64,000 nucleotides of DNA, taken from positions 67,105 to 131,104 of the forward strand of contig CAWAJT010000008.1 in NCBI GenBank assembly GCA_963782415.1, given 5' to 3'. Origin of the DNA: an uncultured Acidimicrobiaceae bacterium (GTDB lineage Bacteria > Actinomycetota > Acidimicrobiia > Acidimicrobiales > RAAP-2). Both the position numbers and the translations under genes were made by a program. Positions 30,668 through 63,095 of the stretch are shown here, piece by piece; position 1 is the stretch's first letter; every line of letters starts with the position of its first letter. Under the pieces are notes generated by a model that was not told where the DNA came from, ran no database searches, and saw nothing but the letters and a program-made list of their open reading frames with translations.

Positions 30668-31474
30668 TTATGTCCCGAGGTGGAGGGCGACGGCAGCGTC
30701 GGGTTCGAGCACCCGGAAGTTGAAACTCTCCTCGATGTAGAGGCGCACGGCGTCGGCGTCGTGATCGAGGTAGCCGATGGAGAGATCCTGCCCACACTCC
30801 ATCTGGAAGTCGCCGCCGCGCAGGCTCAGCACGACACCGCCCTCGAGCCCGGGCGCCCACACCAGGGGGCCACCGAGGATCTTACGGAGGTGGTCCAACA
30901 AGAGGTGCCCGCCGAACTCCGCGGTCTCGACGATCCGGGTGTACATGTCCGGGCAGATGGCGAGGCCGTAGGGGCCGTCGATGCCGGCCTGACGAAGGAG
31001 ATTGACGCCGCGAGCCACGCCGTCGGGTGCCGTGGCGATGTCGCCGCCGAGTGTGATGGGTTCGTGCGACGTGCTGTCGGTGATGCCGCGCTGGCCGGCC
31101 GCCTCGTAACCGTGGAAGACCATCACGTTCTCGCCCAGAGCGATCTGGCGCACGGCCTCGTCGAGCTCGGCCAGGTCCGGGTTGTTCGTCCCGCGGTCGA
31201 CGTCGTCGAGCTCGACCCGCGAGACCTTGAACTCGGTGCGCAGTTCCACCAGGGGGAGGACCACCCGCTGGGCGGCGGCCACGCCCTCGGAAGGGCCGGT
31301 GATGGACGTGATGCGGCCGAGGTCGGTGGCCGAGTGCGTCCAGCCGTGCGGACCGCCGAAGTCCACCAGCTTGCGGGCGGCGAGATAGGTCGGGAGCCGG
31401 GACTTGGCCTCGTCGTCGATGGCGTCCCAGCCGGCATCCGAAATCGGGGCCAGTTCGCGTTGGAGGTGGTTCAT
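30668..31474 (-). CDS. family 1 encapsulin nanocompartment shell protein (Linocin_M18 / HK97-fold)
   Basis: 268 aa; end-to-end similarity to the T. maritima/M. xanthus encapsulin pattern (MNHLQRELAPISDAGWDAIDDEA...; IDGPYGLAI; RGGDFQMECGQDLSIGYLDHDADAVRLYIEESFNFRV). ATG 31474 after an AAGGGAA RBS, overlapping the upstream stop (TGATG). Confidence 0.9.
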   Translation of the reverse strand: MNHLQRELAPISDAGWDAIDDEAKSRLPTYLAARKLVDFGGPHGWTHSATDLGRITSITGPSEGVAAAQRVVLPLVELRTEFKVSRVELDDVDRGTNNPDLAELDEAVRQIALGENVMVFHGYEAAGQRGITDSTSHEPITLGGDIATAPDGVARGVNLLRQAGIDGPYGLAICPDMYTRIVETAEFGGHLLLDHLRKILGGPLVWAPGLEGGVVLSLRGGDFQMECGQDLSIGYLDHDADAVRLYIEESFNFRVLEPDAAVALHLGT

Positions 31475-31851
31475 CAGGCTGTTCCCTTCAGACTCCCGAT
31501 GCCGAGCGACCCCGAGTCGCCGGCGCTCGATGTGGATCCGCCCTCGGGCTCCTGGCCGCCGTCGCCGACCTCGGTGATGGGGCCGGACGAGAACAAGAAC
31601 TTGCGCAGCTGGGCGTCGAGGGCGGCGTCGCGCCGGCGTAGCCACTCGAGGGCCATGGCGGCGTGCTCTTTCTCGTCGTCTCGGTTGTAGGCGAGGACGG
31701 CGGCCAGGCTCTCGTCCGAGGTCGCCTTCACGCGCTGGTCGTACCAGTCGATCGCCTCGAGCTCCTCGCCCAGCGACGTCATGGCGCGGTGGTAGTCGAT
31801 GCTGGCTTCGTCGAGCAGATTGAGCGGCTCGTGCAATCCCTCGCTGGCCAA
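31474..31851 (-). CDS. encapsulated ferritin-like protein (EncFtn) cargo with C-terminal encapsulin targeting peptide
   Basis: EncFtn core (EELEAIDWYDQRVKATSDESLAAVLAYNRDDEKEHAAMALEWLRRRD) and C-terminal targeting peptide ...DSGSLGIGSLKGTA. TTG 31851 after a strong GAGGAGG RBS; the longer GTG 31947 extension lacks an RBS. Confidence 0.85.
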   Translation of the reverse strand: MASEGLHEPLNLLDEASIDYHRAMTSLGEELEAIDWYDQRVKATSDESLAAVLAYNRDDEKEHAAMALEWLRRRDAALDAQLRKFLFSSGPITEVGDGGQEPEGGSTSSAGDSGSLGIGSLKGTA

Positions 31852-31863
31852 GGTTGCCTCCTC

Positions 31864-31906
31864 GCGTGTAGTTCCGTGTGTTCCGGCGTGTGCTTCGGTC
31901 GTGTGG
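31864..31906 (-). promoter_or_regulatory. four phased direct repeats CACACG (period 12-13 nt) immediately upstream of the EncFtn RBS
   Basis: Minus-strand read CACACGaccgaagCACACGccggaaCACACGgaactaCACGCG, directly 5' of GAGGAGG-TTG. Confidence 0.35.
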
Positions 31907-32133
31907 TTCTCGACAACCGGGGATGGAACGCCCCGAGCGACGCCCACAGTGAAGCACCTGCGGGTCCCCCGAGTCTACGGGACGTCCCCCGGCCCCGGTC
32001 GTGGGCCCTCCGGTGACGGTGCCGGTGTGTCGCCGGTCGCACTCTGGGAGGTGCGCGCCGGGTGCCGGCCGCGCAGGCTCCGGGGGTGGATCGGCGCCGT
32101 GGCGGCGTGCTCGGGTCGCTCCGGGTGTAACCG

Positions 32134-33334
32134 GCCCGTCCGCGCGCCGTAGCGGGCCGCAAGCGGTGACGCGCTCGACGCCGTGCAAAAGCACGCTCAA
32201 CGCGACCGTCAAGGTGACCGTCCCCAGCACGACGGTGGACTCGGCCGGTGCCAGCGTGTCGACCGCGATGAGCCCGAACACCACCGACGCCAACCCGCGC
32301 GGCCCGAACCAGCCGACGAAGCCGACCGTGGCCCGGTCGAGGCCGCTCCCGAGGAGCGCCACCGCGACGGGCACCATCCGCACGACGGTCAAGGCGAGCA
32401 GTGCGAACACGACGGTGCGCCACCCCACGTCGGCCAGCCCGGGTCCGAGCATGACGGCGCCGAACACGAACCAAACCAGGAGGGTGAGGAGCGTGCCGCC
32501 CTCCTCGGCGAAGCGCAGGTCGGCCACGTCCTCGCTCCGGTCGAGGGCGCCGAAGGCCATGCCGGCCACGAAGGCGGCGATGAAGCCGTTGGTGCCGGCG
32601 GCGACCGAGCCCGAATAGGCGAGGAGCGCAAGGGCCAGGACGGCGATCGGACGGAAGCCGGCTGCGCTCCATCCGTGGCGGGCCGCCAGCGCCAGGAGAG
32701 TGGCGCCGACCACACCCACGCCGATCCCCAGGCTGGCCCCCCCGACGAGGTCGACGACGGCGGCGGCGGGCCGGGCGCCGTGCACGGCCTCGGCACTGAC
32801 CGCTCCTGCGAGGAAGAGGTTCACGAAGGGCGTGACGATGCCGTCGTTGAGACCGCTCTCCACGTTCAAGAGGCGGCGCACCGCCGGCGGGATGCGCGTG
32901 TCGCCCATAACGGTGGCGCCCAGCGCAGCGTCGGTCGGCGCCACGATCGCGCCGATGGCGGCGGCCACCCACAGGCCGCTGCCGCCAAAGAGCAGCGCGG
33001 CCACACCGGCACCGGCACCGATGGTGAGCGGGAGCCCGATGCCCAAGAGGCGGGCGGGGAGTGCGGCATCGGCGCGCAGGGCCGCGAGGTGGACGCGGGA
33101 GGCGTCGGCGAACAACACGAGGGCGAGCGTCACCTCGGCCAACGTGAGGATCGTCGACGAGTGCAGGCTGACGTGGATCACCGCCGTCGGGCCGTGCGTC
33201 GTCGCCAGACCGAGGAGGACGAAAGCGATCGGGCCCGACACGTCCGAGCGCTCCAGCCGTGCCGAGACGAGACCCCATGCGAGGACGCAGGCCGAAAGCA
33301 CGACCAGCGAGGTGACGTTGGGCTCGTGCGTCAC
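32134..33334 (-). CDS. NhaP-type (CPA1) Na+/H+ antiporter; 3' end unresolved
   Basis: About 400 aa with 11-13 TM helices and CPA1 motifs (VRRLLNVESGLNDGIVTPFVNLFLAG). The frame has no stop and runs through ~220 aa of R/P-rich junk into the encapsulin frame, so a frameshift or an alternative end near 32140 (frame-2 stop at 31975) is likely. Confidence 0.65.
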
Positions 33335-43427: not shown

Positions 43428-43599
43428 ATCCAGCGGCCCGCGCGGGGCCCGGGCCGCTGCATCGCTGCCGCGCTTTCTTCGGCTCAAAGATGGGTTAGGA
43501 ACGCCCCATTCCCTGAGCTCCCTTTCGAGCCGTACGCCTACAGTCGTGATCGTGCCCTGATCCCGCCGGGGAAGGACGGGCCGGTAACGTAAGCCCGAT

Positions 43600-46218
43600 G
43601 TGGCCGAACGATGCGGCGAAATGTGCTGCCTCTCGCCGCGTTGGCTCGCACCCCGGTTGCGCGTGACTGAAGTATCCGGGCCCGAGGCCACGTCCCGTCC
43701 GCGACACGCGAAGGTCGAACCGGATACCCCTGCGCCAGACCCCGCGAGTTCGTCGCGTGGTCGTTGGTGGTGGGTCCCGGGCGCCATCACGGTCATCACG
43801 ATTGCCAGTGTCATTGCGGTCACGCTGTCGCAGCTCCATCCGGGCATGCTCCTGACCGACACGACGACCACCGGGGGCGATACCGGCGCGCACATCGCAA
43901 TGCCCAAGTTCCTCGAGACATTGATCAGCCACGGTCACCTCACGGGCTGGGACCCCGGCTGGTATGACGGCTTCCCCCTCTACACCTTCTACTTCACGAT
44001 TCCCGATCTCTTCATCGCCATTGGCGGATGGATCATCCCCTATGGCGTCGCCTTCAAAATGGGAACGATCCTTGGCTCGGTGCTGCTCCCCATCTGCGCC
44101 TGGGCTTGTGGCCGGTTCTTCCGATTGCGGGCTCCGCTTCCGACCATCCTGGCGGCCGCCACCCTCCCGTTCCTGTTCGATTACACGTTCACCATTTACG
44201 GCGGGAACCTGTTCTCCACGTTGGCTGGCGAGTACGCGTATTCATTCAGCCTCTCGCTGGCCGTGCTCTTCCTCGGACTCTTCGCCTGCGCAATCAGGGA
44301 GCATCGATACCGCGGATGGACGGCCATCGTGCTCGCCGTCTGCGTGCTGTCGCACATCGTCCCCGGCATGTACGCCCTTGGCGGCGCTGTCATCCTCACG
44401 CTCGTCGAGTTGCTCCCGGCCCGGTGGGGGATCACCGACTCGGGACTGCACGTGTGGCGCGGCGACGCCGCACGGGAGCCCGTGCCCCGGCTGCGCACGC
44501 TGTGGTGGGCCGGTTCCACGGTCGCGATCGGGCTGCTGCTCTCCGGCTGGTGGCTGGCGCCCTTCGGGTTGGAGCACGCGTATTCGTCGTCGATGGGCTA
44601 CACCAACGTCGAGGGCTGGGCGCAGTACTTCCGGGAGGCCGACGCTTGGGCTCTGGTGCTGGCGGGAATCGGCGCCATCACCGCTGTCGTGGTGCGCAGT
44701 CGGTTCGGCATCACCGTCACACTGCTCGGCATCGCATCGGCGGTCGCCACCGCCGTCGATCCGCAGGGGAGCCTCTACAACGTCCGCCTCCTTCCTCTGT
44801 GGTACATCTCCGTGTACTTCATGGCGGCCTGGGGGTTCGGGGCGGTCTGCATCGTCGTGGCGAAAGCCTGGCGCCGGGCCCAGGACAGGCGGTGGGAGGC
44901 CTCCGTCGCGGCGGATCCAGGTCCCTTGGCGCAGGAGTGGCCGCACCCGTTCTCGGAGGAGCCCCGTACAGCCGACCTCGCAGCCGACGACCTCGCAGCC
45001 GACCCCGGCAATGTGATGACGGCGAGGCGCGCGCCGACCCGGCGCTGGAGCCCGGCGGCGGTGAGTGGCGCGATCCTCGGCCTGCTGGCTGCCATGGTTG
45101 TCGTCGTCCCGCCGTTCATCGTCCCTGCGTCAATGCTGCCGGTCACCATCGGGCCTAACGAGGTGACGAACTGGTCGAACTTCAACTACGAGGGTTACGA
45201 GGGGCAGGCGTCCTATCCGGAGTTCAAGACACTCATGCAGACGATGGACTCGGTGGGCAAGCGCTACGGCTGCGGTCGCGCCATGTGGGAATACAGCGCC
45301 AGTGAGAACCGCTTTGGCACCCCCGAGGCGCTGATGCTCTTGCCCTATGAGACCAACGGGTGCGTCGCTTCGATGGAGGGCCTTCTCTTCGAGTCGTCCG
45401 CCACCACCCCGTACCACTTCCTCAACCAGGCTGAGTTGTCAGCGGGCCCGTCAGAGCCCGAGGTCGGGCTCCCCTACGGGTCCCTCGATGTCACGCTCGG
45501 AGTGCAGCATCTGCAGCTTCTCGGCGTGAAGTACTTCATGGCGGAGACGCCGCAGGTCGAGCAGGAGGCCAACGCGGATCCGTCGCTCCAGCTCGTCGCC
45601 AAGACGGGTCCTTGGACGTACAACTACGACGGGACCGACTCGAACACCACGTGGAACATCTACCTCATCAAGGATTCACCACTGGTGACCCCTCTCGTCA
45701 ACGATCCTGTCGTCGTGTCCGGGGTGCAGCCCGACCCGGCGAGCTGGCTCGGGAATGCGACGAAGGAGGGTCCGGCCCTGAGCTGGTACGGCGATCCGGC
45801 CAAGTGGAACGTCGAGCTCGCGCAGGACGGACCGCCGGATTGGCCCCGCACCTCTATCGACCGTCTTGCGCCGACGGTCAAACGCGCCGGGACGACCCAG
45901 GTCAGCGGGGTGACGCACACCGACTCGTCCATCAGCTTCCACGTGTCGAAGGTGGGGACGCCGGTGCTGGTCAAGGTCTCGTACTTCCCCAACTGGCAGG
46001 CCGACGGAGCGAACGGGCCGTGGCGTGTCACCCCGAACCTCATGGTCGTTGTCCCGACCAGCCACGACGTGACGCTGACCTACGGGTCTTCGAGTGCGGA
46101 CTACCTCGGGTTGTTCGCCACGCTGCTCGGTGTCGGCGGCCTCGTGTGGCTGTGCGTCGTGCCGGCGTTCCGCCGGCGCTTTCGGGACGCCCCCCGGAGC
46201 GGGCCCGACCCGCGCTGA
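43600..46218 (+). CDS. large polytopic membrane protein with a C-terminal extracytoplasmic domain (GT-C-like glycosyltransferase fold; YfhO/DUF2298/PTPS-related-like)
   Basis: About 12 N-terminal TM helices, then a ~350-aa soluble domain and a C-terminal TM anchor. The start is uncertain (43600, or a later ATG/GTG). Confidence 0.5.
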   Translation: MAERCGEMCCLSPRWLAPRLRVTEVSGPEATSRPRHAKVEPDTPAPDPASSSRGRWWWVPGAITVITIASVIAVTLSQLHPGMLLTDTTTTGGDTGAHIAMPKFLETLISHGHLTGWDPGWYDGFPLYTFYFTIPDLFIAIGGWIIPYGVAFKMGTILGSVLLPICAWACGRFFRLRAPLPTILAAATLPFLFDYTFTIYGGNLFSTLAGEYAYSFSLSLAVLFLGLFACAIREHRYRGWTAIVLAVCVLSHIVPGMYALGGAVILTLVELLPARWGITDSGLHVWRGDAAREPVPRLRTLWWAGSTVAIGLLLSGWWLAPFGLEHAYSSSMGYTNVEGWAQYFREADAWALVLAGIGAITAVVVRSRFGITVTLLGIASAVATAVDPQGSLYNVRLLPLWYISVYFMAAWGFGAVCIVVAKAWRRAQDRRWEASVAADPGPLAQEWPHPFSEEPRTADLAADDLAADPGNVMTARRAPTRRWSPAAVSGAILGLLAAMVVVVPPFIVPASMLPVTIGPNEVTNWSNFNYEGYEGQASYPEFKTLMQTMDSVGKRYGCGRAMWEYSASENRFGTPEALMLLPYETNGCVASMEGLLFESSATTPYHFLNQAELSAGPSEPEVGLPYGSLDVTLGVQHLQLLGVKYFMAETPQVEQEANADPSLQLVAKTGPWTYNYDGTDSNTTWNIYLIKDSPLVTPLVNDPVVVSGVQPDPASWLGNATKEGPALSWYGDPAKWNVELAQDGPPDWPRTSIDRLAPTVKRAGTTQVSGVTHTDSSISFHVSKVGTPVLVKVSYFPNWQADGANGPWRVTPNLMVVVPTSHDVTLTYGSSSADYLGLFATLLGVGGLVWLCVVPAFRRRFRDAPRSGPDPR

Positions 46219-55125: not shown

Positions 55126-56082
55126 CTACCGCGGGGGGATCCCCTCTGCGAGGCCGAGCAGCGGCTCGTCGGCCTGGCGGCGCCCTCGACGCCGTCCAGA
55201 GGACCGTGCGCCCTCCGCATGGCGCTGGGTCCTCGCCACGATGACCCGGCTCGCCACCAGCAACAAGAGGACGAGGACCACGAGGATGAGCGCGGCGTCA
55301 TAGGAGAGATAGTGGTAGTTCTGTTGGGGCGCGTTGTAGTACGAGAAGACGACGTAGGTCAGGTATGGGAACGACCCATGCGTCAGGGAGTGCGGCAGGG
55401 TGGGCGCGAAGTTGGCCGTGTAGATGAGTGGGGCCGTCTCGCCCGCCGCGATAGCCAAGGCGAGCAGGAGGCCCGTGACGATGCCCGGCAGGGCGCTCTT
55501 GAGGACCACCTTGCGAAGTCCGTAACCGACGGACATCCCGAGGGCCTCCGCCCCCTCGCGGTACGCCGTGGGTACCTGGCGCAACGAGTTCTCCGTGGTC
55601 TTGGCGATGTAGGGGATCACCATGATGGAGAGGATGATCAGGGCGGCCAGCAGTGAAAAGCCCCAGCCCAGCCCGACGACCAACGCCACGTAGCCCACGT
55701 AGCCCAGCACGATGGAGGGAAAACCCGTAAGGATGTCCGACGCCGTGCGCAGCGGTCCGCTCAGTTTGCCGCTGCGCTTGTCCGGCCGGGCCATCTCCGA
55801 CAAGTGGATGCCGGCCAGTACGCCGACGGTGCCGGCGATGAGCAAGACCCCGAGCATGAGGACCAGCGTGCCCAGGATTTGGTCGCGCAGTCCGCCCCCC
55901 GCTGGGGTCAGCTTGGTCCACAGCACGTCCCAGTGCCAGTGCGGGAGCGCTTTTGTCAGGACGCCGACGAGGAGCCAGGCGGCGGGCGCCATGATGAAGA
56001 ACAGGGCCACGTACGTGAGCACGCGCCAGATTTCCGTGGAGACCCGACGCCGCCGCGTGGCGGTCCCGGCGGCCAGCGACAT
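55126..56082 (-). CDS. pstA: phosphate ABC transporter permease PstA
   Basis: PstA TM pattern and EAA loop (AYREGAEALGMSVGYGLRKVVL). ATG 56082 after GGGAGGGG. Confidence 0.85.
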   Translation of the reverse strand: MSLAAGTATRRRRVSTEIWRVLTYVALFFIMAPAAWLLVGVLTKALPHWHWDVLWTKLTPAGGGLRDQILGTLVLMLGVLLIAGTVGVLAGIHLSEMARPDKRSGKLSGPLRTASDILTGFPSIVLGYVGYVALVVGLGWGFSLLAALIILSIMVIPYIAKTTENSLRQVPTAYREGAEALGMSVGYGLRKVVLKSALPGIVTGLLLALAIAAGETAPLIYTANFAPTLPHSLTHGSFPYLTYVVFSYYNAPQQNYHYLSYDAALILVVLVLLLLVASRVIVARTQRHAEGARSSGRRRGRRQADEPLLGLAEGIPPR

Positions 56083-56128
56083 CAGGCCCCTCCCACCGGA
56101 GCGTGCACCCGGCCGGTGCGGTTGACGA

Positions 56129-57172
56129 TCAGCCACGCGCGACCAGGTTGACGGCGACGGAGATGACGGCGAGCACCAGTGCAAGTTCGGCCAGCGTGGC
56201 CACGGCGAAGCCCGTCCCGTCGGTCAACGCCCCGTCGAGTTGCTGAAGGATGGTGGCAGCCACCGTCGTGAACGGGAGGTAGACGGTATGGGGGATCTGC
56301 AGCGATGTGCCGCCGATCATGGCGATGGCGATGGTCTCGCCGAGCGCCCTGCCGAGGCCGAGGACGGTGGCGCCGATGATGCCCGAGCGCACCCAGGGGA
56401 GGGTCACCTTGTTGGATACCTCCCAGTCGGTCATGCCCAGGGCAAGCGCCCCCTCTTTGGGGAGCGGCGGTACCTGCATGAAGAGATCGCGGGTGGTTGA
56501 GGTGATGATGGGTACGATCATCAGGGCCAGGACGAGGGCGGCTGACAAGAGCCCCTCCCCGTGGCCCACCGGGTTGCGAAAGTACCTGAGCACCGGTACG
56601 TCGGGCATATGGTCGGCGATGACCGGGTAGACGTGCTGGGCCAACCAGGGGCCGAATGTGAGGATGCCCCAGAGGCCGAGCACAACACTTGGGATGCCAG
56701 CCAGGATTTCGACGGTGACGCCCAGCGGCCGCGAGACCCAGGTCGGCATCCGCTCGGTCAGGGCGAAGGCGGCACCGACCGAGAGGGGCACCGCGATGAT
56801 GATCGCGATGATCGACGAGACGACGGTGCCCCAGATGATCGCCCAGGCCCCGAACTGGGCACCCATCTGGTGCGCCACCCCGTGGCTATGGACGACGGAG
56901 CCGTAGCCGTTGCCGTAGGTCCAGTTGCGCCCGTACAAGAAGTACCAGCCGTTGACTCGAATGGCCGGCCACGCCTTGACCGCCAGAACCGAGACCGCGA
57001 AGACCAGCGCGGCCAGGGGCATGACCACGGCCACCCACGCGGCGCCCCGCCACGCATGCTCTTCGTTCCGCCGGGCGAAGCTGCCGACCCGGCGCGGTAA
57101 CGGCGGCCTTCCGGTCGACTCCGCCTGCGGCGTGGCAGGGACTCGCCCCGCCACGCCGCCGACGGACGCCAT
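56129..57172 (-). CDS. pstC: phosphate ABC transporter permease PstC
   Basis: PstC pattern (EGALALGMTDWEVSNKVTLPWVRSGIIGATVLGLGRALGETIA). The ATG overlaps the pstS TAA (TAATG). Confidence 0.85.
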   Translation of the reverse strand: MASVGGVAGRVPATPQAESTGRPPLPRRVGSFARRNEEHAWRGAAWVAVVMPLAALVFAVSVLAVKAWPAIRVNGWYFLYGRNWTYGNGYGSVVHSHGVAHQMGAQFGAWAIIWGTVVSSIIAIIIAVPLSVGAAFALTERMPTWVSRPLGVTVEILAGIPSVVLGLWGILTFGPWLAQHVYPVIADHMPDVPVLRYFRNPVGHGEGLLSAALVLALMIVPIITSTTRDLFMQVPPLPKEGALALGMTDWEVSNKVTLPWVRSGIIGATVLGLGRALGETIAIAMIGGTSLQIPHTVYLPFTTVAATILQQLDGALTDGTGFAVATLAELALVLAVISVAVNLVARG

Positions 57173-58296
57173 TACTTGATGCCCAGGATCTGCTTGTCCG
57201 ACTGCGCCACGACCTTGGAGGGCAGCGCCAGGAAGTTGACCTGGGAGAGGTACGAGGAGCTCGCACCGTACTTCTTGTTGAGTGCCCACTCGAGCACGGA
57301 GCGGATGTTCTTGGCCGTCGACGACGACGACTGCTGGTTCGAGACGATGGCGTACTCGTAGTTGACGATCGGGTACCCGTTCTTGATGTTGCCGTAGATC
57401 AGCGAGATCGTCCCATTGGCCGGAGTCTTCTTCACGAAGCCGGCGGCCTCGGCTGCGATGGCGTCTTGGGTCGGCAGCACGTATTGCTTGTGGCCGTTTC
57501 CGAGCGAGGCGTATCCCTGGCCGTTCTGCAGCACCTGCTGGAGGTAGGAGATGCCGACGTAGGCGATGCAGCCGACCGTGGCCTTGCAGCCGCTCACCAT
57601 GCCCGAGTTGCCGTTCTCGCCGAGAGCGCCCGGCGCGGCCGGCCACGGCACGGTGGTGTTGTAGCCGACCTTGGCGCCCCAGCCCGAAGGATCGGCCTTG
57701 GACAGGTAGCTGGTCCACAGGAAGGTGTCACCCGAACTGTCCGAACGGTGCAGCGTGACGATCGGCGTGGCGGGCAGGGTCACGCCGGGGTTGGTGCTGG
57801 CGATGGCCGAGTCGTTCCACTTGGTGATCGTGCCCTGGTAGATCTCGGAGAGCACCTTGCCGCTCAACTTGAGGTGGGCCGTGACACCGGGGACGTTGTA
57901 CTCAGCGATCTGCGCCGAGATGACCAGCGGGATGTTCTTGAGGTGAGGGTTGGCTTGGACCACGCTCGGGGCGAGATACGCATCGGAGGCCCCGATGTCG
58001 ATGGTGCCGTTCTCGGCCTCGGAGATCCCTGTCCCCGACCCCGTCGACGCCGTCTGGACCGTCGTGCCCGGGTACTTCTCGGCGTAGCCGCCCGCCCACA
58101 GGTTGAACAGCGGGTAGAGCAAGCTGGACCCGGTCTCAGTGACAGTGCCGCCGGAGGGTGTCTCCACGCCGCTCTTGGGCAGCTTCGTGCTCGCCGATGC
58201 GGCCGTGCTGAGGACGACGGAACTCAGGACGAAGCCTGCCGCGGCAACAGCGAGCGCCCCTCGCTTCAGTCGCGTCGTTCTCATCAAATTTGTCAC
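57172..58296 (-). CDS. pstS: phosphate ABC transporter substrate-binding protein PstS
   Basis: PstS fold with an N-terminal signal; GTG 58296 after AAGGAGAG. Confidence 0.85.
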   Translation of the reverse strand: MTNLMRTTRLKRGALAVAAAGFVLSSVVLSTAASASTKLPKSGVETPSGGTVTETGSSLLYPLFNLWAGGYAEKYPGTTVQTASTGSGTGISEAENGTIDIGASDAYLAPSVVQANPHLKNIPLVISAQIAEYNVPGVTAHLKLSGKVLSEIYQGTITKWNDSAIASTNPGVTLPATPIVTLHRSDSSGDTFLWTSYLSKADPSGWGAKVGYNTTVPWPAAPGALGENGNSGMVSGCKATVGCIAYVGISYLQQVLQNGQGYASLGNGHKQYVLPTQDAIAAEAAGFVKKTPANGTISLIYGNIKNGYPIVNYEYAIVSNQQSSSSTAKNIRSVLEWALNKKYGASSSYLSQVNFLALPSKVVAQSDKQILGIK

Positions 58297-58311
58297 AGAT
58301 TCTCTCCTTGT

Positions 58312-58346
58312 GATGTGGGTTTGGTTGGTGAAGCTCTGGTGATTCG
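58312..58346 (-). promoter_or_regulatory. PHO-box-like phased 11-nt direct repeats (TCACC cores) upstream of pstS
   Basis: Minus-strand read AATCACCAGAG|CTTCACCAACC|AAACCCACATC, immediately 5' of the pstS RBS. Confidence 0.4.
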
Positions 58347-58405
58347 CTGATGCGGCCGTCGTTGTCGATGGACTCGGCGTTGTCGAGTCGCGCCAGTCCT
58401 GCCGC

Positions 58406-59206
58406 CTAGCCCATCCGTCCCGTGACGTAACGCTCGGTGTCCCGATGCGTCGGCCTGTTGAACAGGTCGTCGGTCGCTCCGTACTCGACGAGCGCCCCCT
58501 GATAGAAGAACATCGTTTGATGCGAGACCCGCATCGCCTGGCCCAGGTTGTGCGTCACGACGATCAAGGTGAGCGCAGGGGTCAGGGTCTTGAGAAGTGC
58601 CTCAATCGACTCCGTGGTGACGGGGTCGAGCGACGAGGTCGGCTCGTCGAGCAGCAGCACCTCTGGTCCGACCGCAAGGGCGCGTGCCAAGCAGAGCAGT
58701 TGTTGCTGTCCGCCCGAAAGGCGAAACGGCGAATCGTGCAGACGGTCCTTGACGGCGTCCCACAAGCCGACCTCAGTGAGCCGGCGCTCGCACACGACGT
58801 CGAGCTGCTTGCCCTTAGCGATCCGGTGTGCCTTGACCCCTGCGACCACGTTGTCCCTGATCGACATCGGGAAGGGGTTCGGCCGCTGGAACAACATGCC
58901 CACCCGTCTGCGCAATGTCAACAAGTCCACGTGCTGCGCCCACAGGCTCTCGTCGTCGAGAGTGATGTCGCCGCCGCGCATGAAACCCGGTACACGGTCG
59001 TTCATCCGGTTCAGTGTCCGCAGGAACGTCGACTTACCCGATCCCGTTGGCCCGATGAGCGCCGTGATCGAACCACGCTTGAGGTCCACGTTGATGTCAT
59101 TGAGCACGGTGCGGCCCGAGAATCCCAGACTCGAAATTGACGGATCGCATGACGCATTCCGGGCGGGACGCGTCAGGATCGAGAGCCTGAAGCGCCCTGT
59201 CGACAT
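58406..59206 (-). CDS. pstB: phosphate import ATP-binding protein PstB
   Basis: Walker A GPTGSGKST, LSGGQQQ, and Walker B LLLDEPTS. Located upstream of pstS, as in the mycobacterial pstB-pstS-pstC-pstA order. Confidence 0.85.
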   Translation of the reverse strand: MSTGRFRLSILTRPARNASCDPSISSLGFSGRTVLNDINVDLKRGSITALIGPTGSGKSTFLRTLNRMNDRVPGFMRGGDITLDDESLWAQHVDLLTLRRRVGMLFQRPNPFPMSIRDNVVAGVKAHRIAKGKQLDVVCERRLTEVGLWDAVKDRLHDSPFRLSGGQQQLLCLARALAVGPEVLLLDEPTSSLDPVTTESIEALLKTLTPALTLIVVTHNLGQAMRVSHQTMFFYQGALVEYGATDDLFNRPTHRDTERYVTGRMG

Positions 59207-60361: not shown

Positions 60362-60709
60362 TCAGGTATCGATCGCCGCTCGGAGCTCGGCGAGACGATC
60401 ACGGTTCAGTGAGTACCAGACCCACTTGCCTCGACGATCGCCCCGGACAAGACCGGCATCACTGAGGACCTTGAGGTGGTGCGACACCGTGGGCTGGCTC
60501 TTGGCCAAAGGCTCGACAAACTCACAGACACAGACCTCGCCATCGGGTGCCGCCGCCAGAATGCTGAGTACCCGAAGTCGGACGGGGTCAGCCAGCGCAG
60601 CGAAACCGCCTGCCAGCTCGGCGGCACCGGCGGCGTCGAGCGGTGCGGCCAGGACGGATGCACAGCACTCTGGCGGCCGGGTCTTGGTCGCAACTGCCTG
60701 CTTGCTCAT
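60362..60709 (-). CDS. arsR: ArsR/SmtB-family metalloregulator
   Basis: HTH with ELCVCEF-like metal site (GEVCVCEFVEPLAKSQPTVSHHLKVL). ATG 60709 after AAGGTGGG. Confidence 0.85.
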   Translation of the reverse strand: MSKQAVATKTRPPECCASVLAAPLDAAGAAELAGGFAALADPVRLRVLSILAAAPDGEVCVCEFVEPLAKSQPTVSHHLKVLSDAGLVRGDRRGKWVWYSLNRDRLAELRAAIDT

Positions 60710-60731
60710 GGGGCCACCCACCTTTACATTG

Positions 60732-60781
60732 ACATCTATAGATATATCCGCCAGACTCGATACATCGACTGAGATCGATAC
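60732..60781. promoter_or_regulatory. AT-rich divergent promoter with palindrome ATCTATAGAT and TCGAT/ATCGA inverted repeats (ArsR operator candidate)
   Basis: ATCTATAGAT (60734-60743) is a perfect palindrome. TCGATACATCGA...ATCGATAC repeats follow, in the only low-GC 70-bp stretch of the region. Confidence 0.4.
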
Positions 60782-60795
60782 TACAGGAGGTCACC

Positions 60796-61278
60796 ATGTC
60801 GAGGGTCCAACTCGCACTCAACGTCAGCGACATCGACGAAGCCGTTGCGTTCTACACCAAGCTCTTCGGGACCGGGCCGGCCAAGCGCCAGCCGGGCTAC
60901 GCCAACTTCGCCGTGGCCGATCCACCGCTGAAGCTGGTGCTGATGGAGGACCCGAGTGCTCGCGGGCACGGGACGATGAGCGCCCTCAATCATCTCGGTG
61001 TCGAGGTCGAGACGCCCGCCGAGGTGGCAAAGGCTACGGGACGCCTGAACAGCACGGGCATCGAGACCGAGGTCCAAGAGCAGACCACCTGTTGCTATGC
61101 GGTGCAGGACAAGGTGTGGGTGAACGACCCCGACGGCGCTCCTTGGGAGGTCTACACCGTCCTCGCTGATGCTCCGGCCGAGACCGGCATCGCCGGAGAC
61201 GGGACATGTTGCGTTCCCGAGGCGGTCGGTGAGCCCGTAAACGTGGGAGCCATGAAAGCCGGCTCGTCCTGCTGTTGA
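60796..61278 (+). CDS. VOC/glyoxalase-family protein with vicinal cysteine pairs (ArsI C-As lyase-like / CadI-like)
   Basis: Glyoxalase fold; vicinal CC at residues 98-99 (TTCCYAV) as in ArsI Cys96-Cys97, plus C-terminal GTCC...SSCC; first gene of the ars operon. Confidence 0.6.
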   Translation: MSRVQLALNVSDIDEAVAFYTKLFGTGPAKRQPGYANFAVADPPLKLVLMEDPSARGHGTMSALNHLGVEVETPAEVAKATGRLNSTGIETEVQEQTTCCYAVQDKVWVNDPDGAPWEVYTVLADAPAETGIAGDGTCCVPEAVGEPVNVGAMKAGSSCC

Positions 61279-61308
61279 GGTCGTAAGGGCATCGGGGGAT
61301 CGGGTGTC

Positions 61309-62043
61309 GTGAGGGACACCGTGCTGTGGCGGCGCCTGCTCGCGGAGTTCTCGGGCAGCGCCTTCTTGGCCGCCATCGTCATCGGCTCGGGCATTGCCGC
61401 GGAGAATTTCTCGCCCGGCGATGTCGGCCTGCAGCTCTTCGAGAACGCAGCGGCAACAGCGGCCGGCCTCTTCGCCATCATCTTGATGTTCGGGCCGATC
61501 TCGGGCGGCCACTTCAATCCGATCGTCTCCTTCGTCGATGCCGGCTTCGGGGGGCTCAAGTGGAAGGACGCCGCCGCCTACCTCCCGTTCCAGACGCTGG
61601 GATGCATCTGCGGCGCCGTTCTCGCCAATGCGATGTTCTCTGAGGCCGCCATCTCCATCTCGACCAAACACCGTGCCTCGGGCCCCCACTGGCTTTCCGA
61701 GGTCGTGGCCACGGTGGGTCTGCTGCTGGTGATCTTCGCCCTGGCCCGCTCGGGGCGCTCCCACCTCGCCCCGGCCGCGGTGGGCGCCTTCATCGGTGCT
61801 GCCTACTTCTTCACGAGTTCGACGAGCTTTGCCAATCCGGCCATCACGGTAGGGCGCATGTTCTCCAACACCTTCGCCGGCATCGCCCCGTCGTCGGTCC
61901 CGAGCTTCATCTCTGCCCAGATCGTCGGTGGCGCGTTGGCGTTCGGCCTCATCAGGGGCCTGTATCCCGGCATGACCAAGGCTGAAGCGGCGGACGTCAT
62001 CGAACCGCACCTGCGCGGCAAGAACGATCTCGAGACCCGCTGA
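61309..62043 (+). CDS. MIP-family aquaglyceroporin (AqpS/GlpF-like putative arsenite channel)
   Basis: Two NPA-type boxes (GHFNPIVSF = NPI; NPAITVGR = NPA) and six TM helices; GTG 61309. Confidence 0.8.
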   Translation: MRDTVLWRRLLAEFSGSAFLAAIVIGSGIAAENFSPGDVGLQLFENAAATAAGLFAIILMFGPISGGHFNPIVSFVDAGFGGLKWKDAAAYLPFQTLGCICGAVLANAMFSEAAISISTKHRASGPHWLSEVVATVGLLLVIFALARSGRSHLAPAAVGAFIGAAYFFTSSTSFANPAITVGRMFSNTFAGIAPSSVPSFISAQIVGGALAFGLIRGLYPGMTKAEAADVIEPHLRGKNDLETR

Positions 62044-62067
62044 TCTCGAAACATCGAAAGGACACAT

Positions 62068-62396
62068 ATGCACCTCGTAGCCATCGGAGGCAGTGACGCC
62101 GGCATCAGCGCGGCGTTGCGGGCGCGCGAGCTCGATCCCACCACCGAGGTGACCGTCGTCGTGGCCGACGCCTACCCCAACTTCTCCATTTGCGGCATCC
62201 CGTATTACGTCTCGGGCGAGGTCACCCAGTGGCGAAGCGCATCGACATCGCGGCCGCAGCCATCTTCAACGAGATGACCATCGATGCCGTGAGCGAGCTC
62301 GATCTCTCCTACACGCCCCCGCTCGGCAGCCCCTGGGACGCGGTCCAAATGGGGGCCCAGGTTTGGGTTCGAGAACAGAGATCAAGCGACAACTGA
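62068..62396 (+). pseudogene. remnant of a pyridine nucleotide-disulfide oxidoreductase (CoA-disulfide reductase/NADH oxidase-like) with a large internal deletion
   Basis: ORF 62068..62277 encodes only the N-terminal FAD motif (MHLVAIGGSDAGISAALRAR). ORF 62190..62396 encodes only the C-terminal dimerisation tail (IDAVSELDLSYTPPLGSPWDAVQMGAQ). About 350 aa of the middle are missing. Confidence 0.6.
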
Positions 62397-62453
62397 CGAG
62401 CAGCAAGCGCCGGTCTCGGGATGTGAGGGGCCGCTGGAGCGAAAGGGGAAAAC

Positions 62454-63095
62454 ATGCGTGAAACCGAGCTCATGACACCGGAGCAGAGAACGCAGCTGAA
62501 CCACGTGATCAAGCAGCTCCACACGAAGTTCCACGGAGTCTTCAACTTCGAGTCCGTCGAGGCCTTCGTGTTCGAGAGCTACGACGAAATCGCCAGGAGG
62601 GCGACCGTCACGACGTGGCTGGTCGCGACGGCGGAAAAGTATGCCCTGCAACGTCTCGAGGCGCTGGCCCACTCAAGGGACGACGCCGAAAAGAGCGTGC
62701 CGGCCGTGCTCTTCCTCTGCGTCCACAATGCCGGGCGCTCCCAGATGGCGCTCGGTTGGTTCAACTACCTGGCGGCCGGCCGTGCGGTCGCCTGGTCCGG
62801 TGGGTCGGAGCCAGGATCTGAGCTCAACCCCGACGTGGTCAAGGCGATGGCGGAGGTCGGGATCGACATATCTCGGGAATTCCCGAAGCCCTGGACCGAT
62901 GAGTTTCTCGAGGCAGCCGATGTCGTGGTGACCATGGGCTGCGGTGACTCCTGCCCGCTGGTGCCTGGCAAGCGCTACGAAGACTGGGAACTCGAAGATC
63001 CGACCGAGCAGACGCTCCAGGAGATCCGGCCCATTCGAGATGCAGTCAGGGATCGCGTCGAGTCGCTGCTCTTGGAAATCCTCCCAACGAACTGA
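62454..63095 (+). CDS. arsC: LMW-PTP-family arsenate reductase ArsC with an ~85-aa unrecognised N-terminal extension
   Basis: CX5R P-loop LFLCVHNAGRSQMA plus downstream Cys/Asp (TMGCGDSCP); N-terminal helical domain MRETELMTPEQRTQLNHVIKQLHTKFHGVFNFESVEAFVFESYDEIARRA of unknown family. Confidence 0.75.
   Translation: MRETELMTPEQRTQLNHVIKQLHTKFHGVFNFESVEAFVFESYDEIARRATVTTWLVATAEKYALQRLEALAHSRDDAEKSVPAVLFLCVHNAGRSQMALGWFNYLAAGRAVAWSGGSEPGSELNPDVVKAMAEVGIDISREFPKPWTDEFLEAADVVVTMGCGDSCPLVPGKRYEDWELEDPTEQTLQEIRPIRDAVRDRVESLLLEILPTN

Follow-up and report, generated by a model that had tools for sequence, protein, structure and literature searches.

A channel-based ars operon with a predicted ArsI-type lyase and a partly deleted flavoprotein gene in an uncultured Acidimicrobiaceae bacterium

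The DNA considered here, referred to below as the window, is a stretch of 64,000 nucleotides from a metagenome-assembled genome (MAG) of an uncultured Acidimicrobiaceae bacterium (contig CAWAJT010000008.1 of assembly GCA_963782415.1), with a GC content of approximately 65%. Close to its downstream end it carries an arsenic resistance (ars) locus, which a preliminary description made from the sequence alone had divided into five parts: a regulator ArsR, an ArsI-like protein of the VOC fold, a channel of the MIP family, the remnant of an oxidoreductase, and an arsenate reductase ArsC. Families were assigned by comparing Pfam and NCBIfam profile scores with the curated cutoffs, and all five parts were found where they had been placed (Table 1). 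The arsI gene, the channel gene, the broken flavoprotein gene and arsC are all on the plus strand, divergent from arsR, and the flavoprotein remnant occupies the 410-bp gap between the channel gene and arsC. The locus is flanked upstream by a gene for a DUF2510 protein and by pst phosphate-transport genes, and downstream by genes for F420-dependent luciferase-like oxidoreductases.

Table 1. Features of the ars locus, in positions of the window.
Feature	Position	Strand	Assignment
arsR	60362–60721	minus	ArsR/SmtB metalloregulator; HTH_5, NF033788
Divergent promoter/operator region	60722–60795		between arsR and arsI
arsI	60796–61278	plus	ArsI/CadI-family VOC-fold protein, 160 aa; NF041414
AqpS-type MIP channel gene	61309–62043	plus	244 aa; PF00230
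Flavoprotein gene, 5′ stub	62068–62277	plus	CoA-disulfide reductase/NADH-oxidase family; TIGR03385 positions 2–54
Deletion junction CAGTGGCG	62227–62234	plus	1,075 bp gone relative to locus L022
Flavoprotein gene, 3′ remnant	62229–62396 (open reading frame 62190–62396)	plus	TIGR03385 positions 396–437, other frame
arsC	62454–63095	plus	LMW-PTP-type arsenate reductase, 213 aa; PF21234 + LMWPc

The first gene of the plus-strand group had been described as encoding a glyoxalase-fold protein that resembles ArsI, and the profile scores, the metal ligands and a vicinal Cys pair all agree with this. The protein scores 184 bits against NF041414 (ArsI_CadI_VOC; cutoff 116), far ahead of the dioxygenase, glyoxalase and FosB models, none of which exceeds 27 bits. 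It is 60% identical (76 of 127 residues, E 1e-43) to ArsI of Thermomonospora curvata (TcArsI, PDB 5c4p/5d4f), a C–As lyase that has been both crystallised and studied biochemically and in which, according to a figure legend in a review, Fe(II) is bound by Gln8, His65 and Glu117 and the organoarsenical by Cys98-Cys99 (PMC6138428). These residues align with Gln5, His66, Glu118 and Cys99-Cys100 of the window protein, all five of which are invariant in an alignment of six sequences (the window protein, TcArsI, a Mycolicibacterium homologue and three MAG relatives). The comparison with the T. curvata enzyme that had been proposed earlier thus finds both the metal ligands and the Cys pair in place, and the alternative named with it, a plain glyoxalase I without the metal site, does not fit. 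Two details need correction: the Cys pair had been numbered 98–99, one too low, and the iron site had been expected as a His-x-Glu...His triad, where the actual site is Gln-His-Glu. The C-terminal tail contains further Cys pairs at 138–139 and 159–160, in keeping with the CC motifs described there. The likeness to the T. curvata enzyme therefore extends from the Gln/His/Glu site and the vicinal Cys pair to a Cys-rich tail, and a difference is a four-residue insertion in the window protein, in a loop at residues 53–60. On this basis the protein is predicted to be an Fe(II)-dependent C–As lyase of the ArsI type, as known from T. curvata and from Bacillus sp. MD1.

The second gene encodes a protein of 244 residues from the GTG at 61309, or 240 residues from 61321. 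It is a member of the MIP family (PF00230, 89 bits), and the NPI and NPA boxes recognized previously are at residues 70–72 and 176–178. The preliminary description assigned it to the AqpS type, with the channel taking the place of an ArsB or Acr3 pump, and both statements are supported. To the MIP encoded on pSymA of Sinorhizobium meliloti the protein shows 45.5% identity over 81% of its length by tblastn (E 4e-31) and 42% when the two are aligned globally; the neighbourhood of that MIP has the order arsR, arsC, MIP, arsC, arsH, which is the layout of the AqpS operon. We note that this pSymA protein, and not SMc02648, was used for the rhizobial comparison. The MIPs in the ars clusters of Mycolicibacterium crocinum and Arthrobacter plasmids are 56–57% identical to the window channel in global alignments and 57–58% by tblastn. 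With regard to pumps, no match to the SBF/Acr3 or ArsB families was found among the 10 largest membrane-protein open reading frames of the window, and neither family was found in the 10 kb that follow downstream on a matching contig.

The preliminary description also called the channel an aquaglyceroporin. Although the literature uses this name, the sequence is not of the GlpF kind: identity to Escherichia coli GlpF is only 23% (27% to AqpZ), the 23-residue loop insertion of GlpF is absent, and among solved structures the closest match is rice NIP2;1 (E 3e-10), with neither GlpF nor AqpZ among its PDB matches at E ≤ 1e-3. Assignment as a GlpF-type aquaglyceroporin was therefore rejected, as the Trp/Gly/Phe/Arg filter and the long inter-NPA loops of that type are both missing. 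In an alignment with AqpZ, where the filter residues are Phe43, His174, Thr183 and Arg189, the selectivity-filter positions of the window channel are Thr, Tyr, Ser and Ile. In place of the Arg that follows the NPA box in GlpF and AqpZ there is thus an Ile (Ile or Val in the family as a whole), and an Arg is found instead five residues past the box. This displaced Arg is common to all the aligned AqpS-type sequences, including the rhizobial one, and is consequently a trait of the family and not a peculiarity of the window; the S. meliloti pSymA protein and the window channel share a FANPA(I/V)xxxR box as well as the Thr/Tyr/Ser pore positions. The AqpS-type channels of ars operons form a large family, with at least 8,000 clusters at 90% identity (all at E ≤ 1e-5), which by sequence is not GlpF-like and is without the canonical pore arginine.

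In the arsR-aqpS-arsC-arsH operon of S. meliloti, as here, a MIP replaces ArsB/Acr3 in an ArsR-controlled operon with an arsenate reductase (Yang et al. 2005, as summarised in PMC6205960 and PMC1440775), and by analogy the window channel is presumed to be a conduit for As(OH)3. The two operons differ in the partners of the channel, which are ArsI and a thioredoxin-type, ArsC1′-like reductase in the window and a glutaredoxin-type ArsC and ArsH in S. meliloti, and in the host, which here is an actinobacterium.

The last gene of the operon encodes a long arsenate reductase. It matches PF21234 (61 bits), an N-terminal three-helix bundle, over residues 15–72, and LMWPc (59 bits), and its best match is ArsC1′ of Corynebacterium glutamicum (PDB 3t38, E 5e-50), which aligns over residues 14–206 with the bundle included. 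Cys88, Cys162 and Cys166 of that enzyme, which is thioredoxin-dependent, are catalytic (PMC6514093); they align with Cys89 (in the CX5R loop, CVHNAGR95), Cys163 and Cys167 of the window protein. In its length of 213 residues, its bundle, its CX5R loop and its three Cys equivalents the window ArsC is of the Cg_ArsC1′ type, and is predicted to be a thioredoxin-coupled three-Cys reductase. The genetic setting is different. In C. glutamicum the gene adjoins Acr3 and is driven by a constitutive promoter of its own (PMC6514093), whereas in the window arsC closes a channel-based operon, and its counterparts in relatives are always preceded by a flavoprotein gene. The combination of an actinobacterial arsenite channel with an LMW-PTP-type ArsC is also known in the form of aquaglyceroporin-ArsC fusion proteins in Frankia alni and Salinispora tropica (Wu, Song and Beitz 2010, cited in PMC6205960); in the window the channel and the reductase are separate genes.

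Two observations on database records concern fusions. Many JGI records call MIP-only proteins "arsenate reductase", a name probably carried over from channel-ArsC fusions. Among the matches of the channel search, a protein of 414 residues (P0111) has both MIP and Glyoxalase Pfam domains, and may be an ArsI-MIP fusion or a read-through gene call in a relative; a protein of 357 residues (P0002) is listed beside it.

The oxidoreductase between the channel gene and arsC had been described as decayed, and this is correct in the sense that a gene of the CoA-disulfide reductase/NADH-oxidase family has been cut by an out-of-frame deletion. What is left consists of two overlapping open reading frames in different frames, which cover only positions 2–54 and 396–437 of the 439 in TIGR03385. 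The 5′ stub begins with 53 residues of the true N-terminus, in which both the GGSDAG motif for FAD binding and the redox Cys42 (in SICGIPY) are preserved; 16 frameshifted residues then precede a stop, for a total of 69 residues. It is 91–98% identical to residues 1–57 of the intact 467-residue orthologues in the closest loci (L004–L025). The 3′ remnant corresponds to residues 413–467 approximately of the intact protein (about 55 codons, stop codon included), and is 87% identical to the L004 protein. Complete FAD, NAD(P)H and dimerisation domains are absent from the window remnant.

DNA alignment with the related locus L022, followed by coordinate mapping, shows that 1,075 bp are missing, with the flanks at L022 positions 6932 (CACTGGCG) and 8007 (CAGTGGCC). 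As 1075 is not a multiple of three (remainder 1), the deletion shifts the frame. The breakpoints are in imperfect 8-nt direct repeats, CACTGGCG and CAGTGGCC, and the junction reads CAGTGGCG. The two fragments are 96% and 94% identical to L022 and the intact neighbouring channel gene is 94% identical; the remnants are therefore as conserved as the adjacent intact gene, which points to a single recent event rather than to long decay. The deletion occurs in none of 80 related species loci.

The same junction is also present on a contig in ENA (ERZ25039538 contig_46752) and on a Logan contig of run ERR11571143. Exact-sequence look-ups of ArsI, ArsC and the 69-residue stub matched only one ENA contig, short Logan contigs and the presumed source contig, and an exact look-up of the MIP gave no match. 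The ENA contig (L002/L093) represents a second haplotype. It does not differ from the window anywhere across the remnant, arsC and the LLM gene; against window positions 60362–61320 it shows clustered substitutions in the 5′ end of arsR, the promoter and arsI, together with single-base indels that resemble long-read errors. The identity downstream and the clustered differences upstream suggest recombination upstream of a shared deletion allele.

The intact orthologues, of which the 467-residue protein of L004 is an example, have Pyr_redox_2, Pyr_redox and Pyr_redox_dim domains. An intact orthologue scores 310 bits on the TIGR03385 CoA-disulfide reductase model, below its equivalog cutoff of 579, and its best structural match is the NADH oxidase 6ruz; by sequence the orthologues belong to the CoA-disulfide reductase/NADH oxidase/NADH peroxidase family. 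When orthologues of five taxa are compared, no cysteine is conserved other than Cys42, in the motif PN(F/Y/L)SICG(I/L)P. With the single redox Cys that is typical of its family and no CxxC motif, the flavoprotein is not a thioredoxin reductase. Public databases name the orthologues "FAD-dependent oxidoreductase" or similar, and no published function was found in the literature for any ars-linked member.

A flavoprotein gene of this kind has reportedly been noted in ars operons since TnAtcArs (the "ORF7" family). The orthologues are 65–69% identical to flavoproteins of ars clusters in Streptomyces and Mycolicibacterium, 54–55% to the FAD-dependent oxidoreductase encoded after arsA on Acidithiobacillus caldus plasmids, and 50% to the flavoprotein of the ars operon on Lactiplantibacillus plantarum pWCFS103. 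The gene contexts are ArsR | ArsI, ArsR, MIP, flavoprotein in M. crocinum; ArsC, trxB, trxA, flavoprotein on Streptomyces pFRL5; arsR, arsC, arsD, arsA, flavoprotein on A. caldus pTcM1; and arsR, arsD, arsA, arsB, a hypothetical gene, an arsD-family gene and then the flavoprotein on pWCFS103. Compared with these proteins, the window keeps only 53 N-terminal and approximately 55 C-terminal codons, in different frames. An "FAD-dependent oxidoreductase" encoded beside a long ArsC on an Arthrobacter plasmid was considered as a further orthologue and rejected; at 21% identity it belongs to another family.

The gene order was compared in 80 loci that represent related species and were located by way of the channel gene. 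All of the nearest relatives of the channel, at protein identities of up to 95%, come from MAGs of uncultured Acidimicrobiaceae or Acidimicrobiales, mostly of the "MFD" soil series. ArsI is encoded directly upstream of the channel in 65 of the 80 loci. In 61 loci the channel gene is followed by a flavoprotein gene, which is uninterrupted in 56 and full-length but frameshifted in five; the other 19 lack it. Of the 61 loci with the gene, 36 continue with a long ArsC, two with a truncated match and 23 without any ArsC. Of the 19 that lack it, 18 have a short ArsC, devoid of the N-terminal bundle, directly after the channel; in at least one of these, L043, the reading frames of the channel and the short ArsC overlap. 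The long ArsC is thus found only behind a flavoprotein gene (36/36; Fisher p = 9e-13, a value that ignores shared ancestry), and the window is the sole exception to this pairing because of its own deletion. The flavoprotein is tightly linked to one ArsC subtype, and the strain in the window amounts to a natural knock-out control. One could speculate that the single-Cys flavoprotein is a redox partner dedicated to the long ArsC and driven by NAD(P)H, or else a reductase of pentavalent organoarsenicals that feeds ArsI; we consider this a doubtful proposal, but if it were true, the window, with its flavoprotein gene lost and its long ArsC kept, would be a ready comparator for the function of the flavoprotein.

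The content of the module differs even among close relatives: in L022 the flavoprotein gene is intact but ArsC is missing ahead of the LLM gene, both genes occur in L007 and L010, and the window has ArsC with the flavoprotein gene deleted. The complete 5.56-Mb Acidimicrobiaceae chromosome OY970336.1 (L010, L074) carries two ArsR | ArsI - MIP loci, one with a flavoprotein and a long ArsC, the other with a short ArsC right after the channel.

ArsR is 119 residues long from the GTG at 60721 and 115 residues from the ATG at 60709. The latter is the likelier start because it is preceded by a ribosome-binding site, AAGGTGG; related ArsR proteins begin at the position of Met5. The protein scores 55 bits on HTH_5 and 96.8 bits on NF033788 (cutoff 55). 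The label of an Rv2640c-family ArsR (NF041413 equivalog) was tried and discarded, the score of 93.6 bits being well below the cutoff of 155. ArsR has a Cys19-Cys20 pair near the N-terminus and Cys64-Val-Cys66 in the DNA-binding region, and these four Cys are kept in 75 of 76 ArsI-adjacent homologues. The N-terminal pair resembles the site of C. glutamicum ArsR, and the CVC motif that of R773 ArsR. MAs(III)-selective ArsR proteins are marked by a C-terminal Cys pair, Cys101-Cys102 (PMC6514093); no CC occurs within the last 35 residues of the window protein or of any of the 76 homologues, which does not fit an ArsR of this kind. The four conserved Cys and the missing C-terminal pair together suggest that the window ArsR is an As(III) sensor.

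The arsR-arsI intergenic region is 74–86 bp long and contains a perfect –35 box TTGACA (60729–60734), a 17-nt spacer and a –10 box CAGACT (60752–60757), with the arsI ribosome-binding site AGGAGG at 60785–60790. Among 78 related intergenic regions TTGACA is found in 70, the 17-nt spacing in all, and a –10 box of the form NATACT or NATAAT in 52. CAGACT occurs in four of the 78: twice in this strain, in the window and in its Logan contig L001, and in two further loci. A generic sigma-70 scan called no promoter in the region because the –10 box is weak, and a terminator scan found one terminator-like hairpin only, inside arsC, which is below chance expectation. An inverted repeat, TAGATATATC (60739–60748) and GATACATCGA (60759–60768), brackets the –10 box, with 10-nt arms that are complementary at eight of 10 positions. 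Arm complementarity is at least 7/10 in 43 of 77 loci, and the mean pairing of the arms (6.10) is slightly better than that obtained with shuffled partners (5.59 ± 0.10; the highest value among 2,000 shuffles was 5.95). We infer from this that the repeat is the ArsR operator. A direct repeat, TCGATAC, is also present, at 60757–60763 and 60775–60781.

Taken together, these results lead us to interpret the locus as a functional arsenic detoxification operon, controlled by ArsR and equipped with a passive channel rather than an efflux pump, whose fourth ancestral gene has been inactivated by a recent deletion; from the sequence we put the probability of this interpretation at approximately 0.8. 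The substrates, direction of flux, regulatory logic and thioredoxin coupling would then be as follows. Without arsenic, ArsR would occupy the inverted repeat overlapping the –10 box of the arsI promoter, and binding of As(III) to the thiols of Cys19/Cys20 and Cys64/Cys66 would release it from the DNA. Arsenate, imported through phosphate uptake systems, would be reduced to As(III) by ArsC in a disulfide cascade from Cys89 to Cys163 to Cys167, with recycling by thioredoxin. ArsI, using Fe(II) and O2, would cut the C–As bond of methylarsenite or aromatic trivalent arsenicals held at Cys99-Cys100, again giving As(III), and As(OH)3 would leave through the AqpS-type channel down its own gradient. 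Such an operon would be expected to protect against arsenate and trivalent organoarsenicals, and not against external arsenite. Efflux through a channel is established for S. meliloti AqpS (PMC6205960, PMC1440775), and the same logic has been proposed for Frankia, where aqpS neighbourhoods hold arsR, arsC2 and cadI (PMC4531530).

Several points weigh against this interpretation. The operon is known from sequence alone, and from the MAG of an uncultured organism. NF041414 merges ArsI and CadI in one NCBIfam family, and we know of no proof of lyase activity for Mycobacterium tuberculosis CadI. The –10 hexamer CAGACT is weak, CATACT being found in most relatives, and the left arm of the inverted repeat has two changes from the consensus. 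The canonical pore arginine is missing from the channel, so that its selectivity cannot be read from GlpF or AqpZ. Finally, if ArsC needed the lost flavoprotein, arsenate reduction could be impaired.

The family shared by ArsI and CadI allows the VOC protein to be read instead as a CadI-like metal-binding protein, responsive to cadmium and heavy metals, whose Cys pairs sequester metal(loid)s. The two additional C-terminal pairs at 138–139 and 159–160 would suit such a function, the M. crocinum homologue adjoins a regulator of the Rv2640c family, as cadI does in M. tuberculosis, and the Frankia literature names such genes cadI (PMC4531530). Against this stand the 60% identity to T. curvata ArsI, with the five catalytic and substrate residues invariant, and the operon partners, which are ArsC and an arsenite channel and not cadmium transporters. 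Nor do the tail pairs speak against a lyase: ArsI is active without its Cys-rich C-terminal tail, which was absent from the TcArsI construct used for crystallisation, where the solved chains end at approximately residue 122. We therefore regard a CadI-like role as unlikely, and retain the assignment as an ArsI-type lyase. The direction in which the channel works can be questioned in a similar way. It could serve mainly for uptake, or for another solute such as water, glycerol, boric or silicic acid, or it could import MAs(III) and so feed ArsI, given that MIP channels are bidirectional (PMC1440775), that the closest match among solved structures is NIP2;1, a channel for silicic acid, and that the pore is without its canonical Arg. 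This seems to us improbable, because the channel gene is located in ars clusters in all 80 surveyed loci, across several phyla and on plasmids, because its homologue in the S. meliloti ars layout is an experimentally defined exit route for arsenite (PMC6205960), and because neither the window nor the 10 kb downstream of it shows a pump that could account for resistance; arsenite efflux remains the preferred function.

The deletion raises two further alternatives. One is that it marks a locus that is decaying as a whole, a disused operon in which the frameshifting loss of 1,075 bp is accompanied by promoter and operator changes (CAGACT in place of the CATACT of most relatives, and departures from the consensus at two operator-arm positions). 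However, ArsR, ArsI, the MIP and ArsC are all full-length, with intact catalytic residues and 84–96% identity to their closest orthologues, and remnants that match L022 at 96% and 94%, against 94% for the MIP, point to one recent event. CAGACT also occurs in two loci outside this strain, and for this reason we did not rely on the weak –10 box as a sign of promoter decay. General decay therefore has little to recommend it. The other alternative, that the gene is intact in the real genome and the break is an artefact of assembly, is very improbable. The source is a MAG, and related long-read loci do have error-like frameshifts (five of the 61 flavoprotein genes, and the indels of L002); but the window shares its junction with an ENA contig whose arsI haplotype differs and with the Logan assembly of ERR11571143, the 8-nt imperfect direct repeats at the breakpoints are typical of deletion by slippage or microhomology, and assemblers seldom lose 1 kb of unique sequence.

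The operon with a single inactivated gene, as proposed above, is closely similar to the arsR/aqpS/arsC2/cadI set of Frankia (Furnholm and Tisa 2014, PMC4531530), which has the same four functional genes, is from the same phylum, and has been tied to arsenate resistance and arsenite sensitivity. That study took cadI as a glyoxalase, whereas the window sequence is of the ArsI lyase type; and the Acidimicrobiales version normally has the extra flavoprotein gene that is deleted here. The preliminary description called the layout atypical, which holds in comparison with textbook ars operons but not within soil Acidimicrobiales, where it is standard. As the gene set has already been described in Frankia and the layout is typical for the lineage, there is little that is new in it, and the value of the locus is chiefly one of annotation: soil Acidimicrobiaceae, which are abundant and uncultured, carry a channel-based ars operon with a credible organoarsenical lyase. 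This is of relevance to arsenic cycling in soil, including the fate of methylated arsenic.

The phosphate ABC transporter genes (pstS, permeases and ATPase) just upstream of the ars locus occupy positions 55126–59206 on the minus strand. Because arsenate enters through phosphate systems, the adjacency of pst and ars may not be accidental. On the M. crocinum plasmid NZ_CP092363.2 (L085 and L087, 136–162 kb), pstS likewise abuts arsA/arsD, in an ars island that contains both of these genes. ArsA is normally thought to require ArsB or Acr3; neither is annotated in the 26 kb of this island that were viewed, and the only arsenite conduit there is an AqpS-type MIP.

Elsewhere in the window, an open reading frame of 876 residues (43588–46218, plus strand) has a coding-like GC3 and approximately nine hydrophobic segments, and has no Pfam match at E ≤ 1e-4. 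On the minus strand, an uninterrupted open reading frame of 888 residues (30668–33334) contains a Na+/H+ exchanger domain (residues 36–407 of the stop-to-stop frame) and, in frame with it, a Linocin_M18 encapsulin shell domain (residues 643–893, 269 bits). This combination was found in none of 135 database homologues, and the antiporter homologues listed are mostly approximately 490–650 residues long, with no encapsulin domain. The long frame may reflect a lost stop codon, an indel in the assembly or a real fusion.

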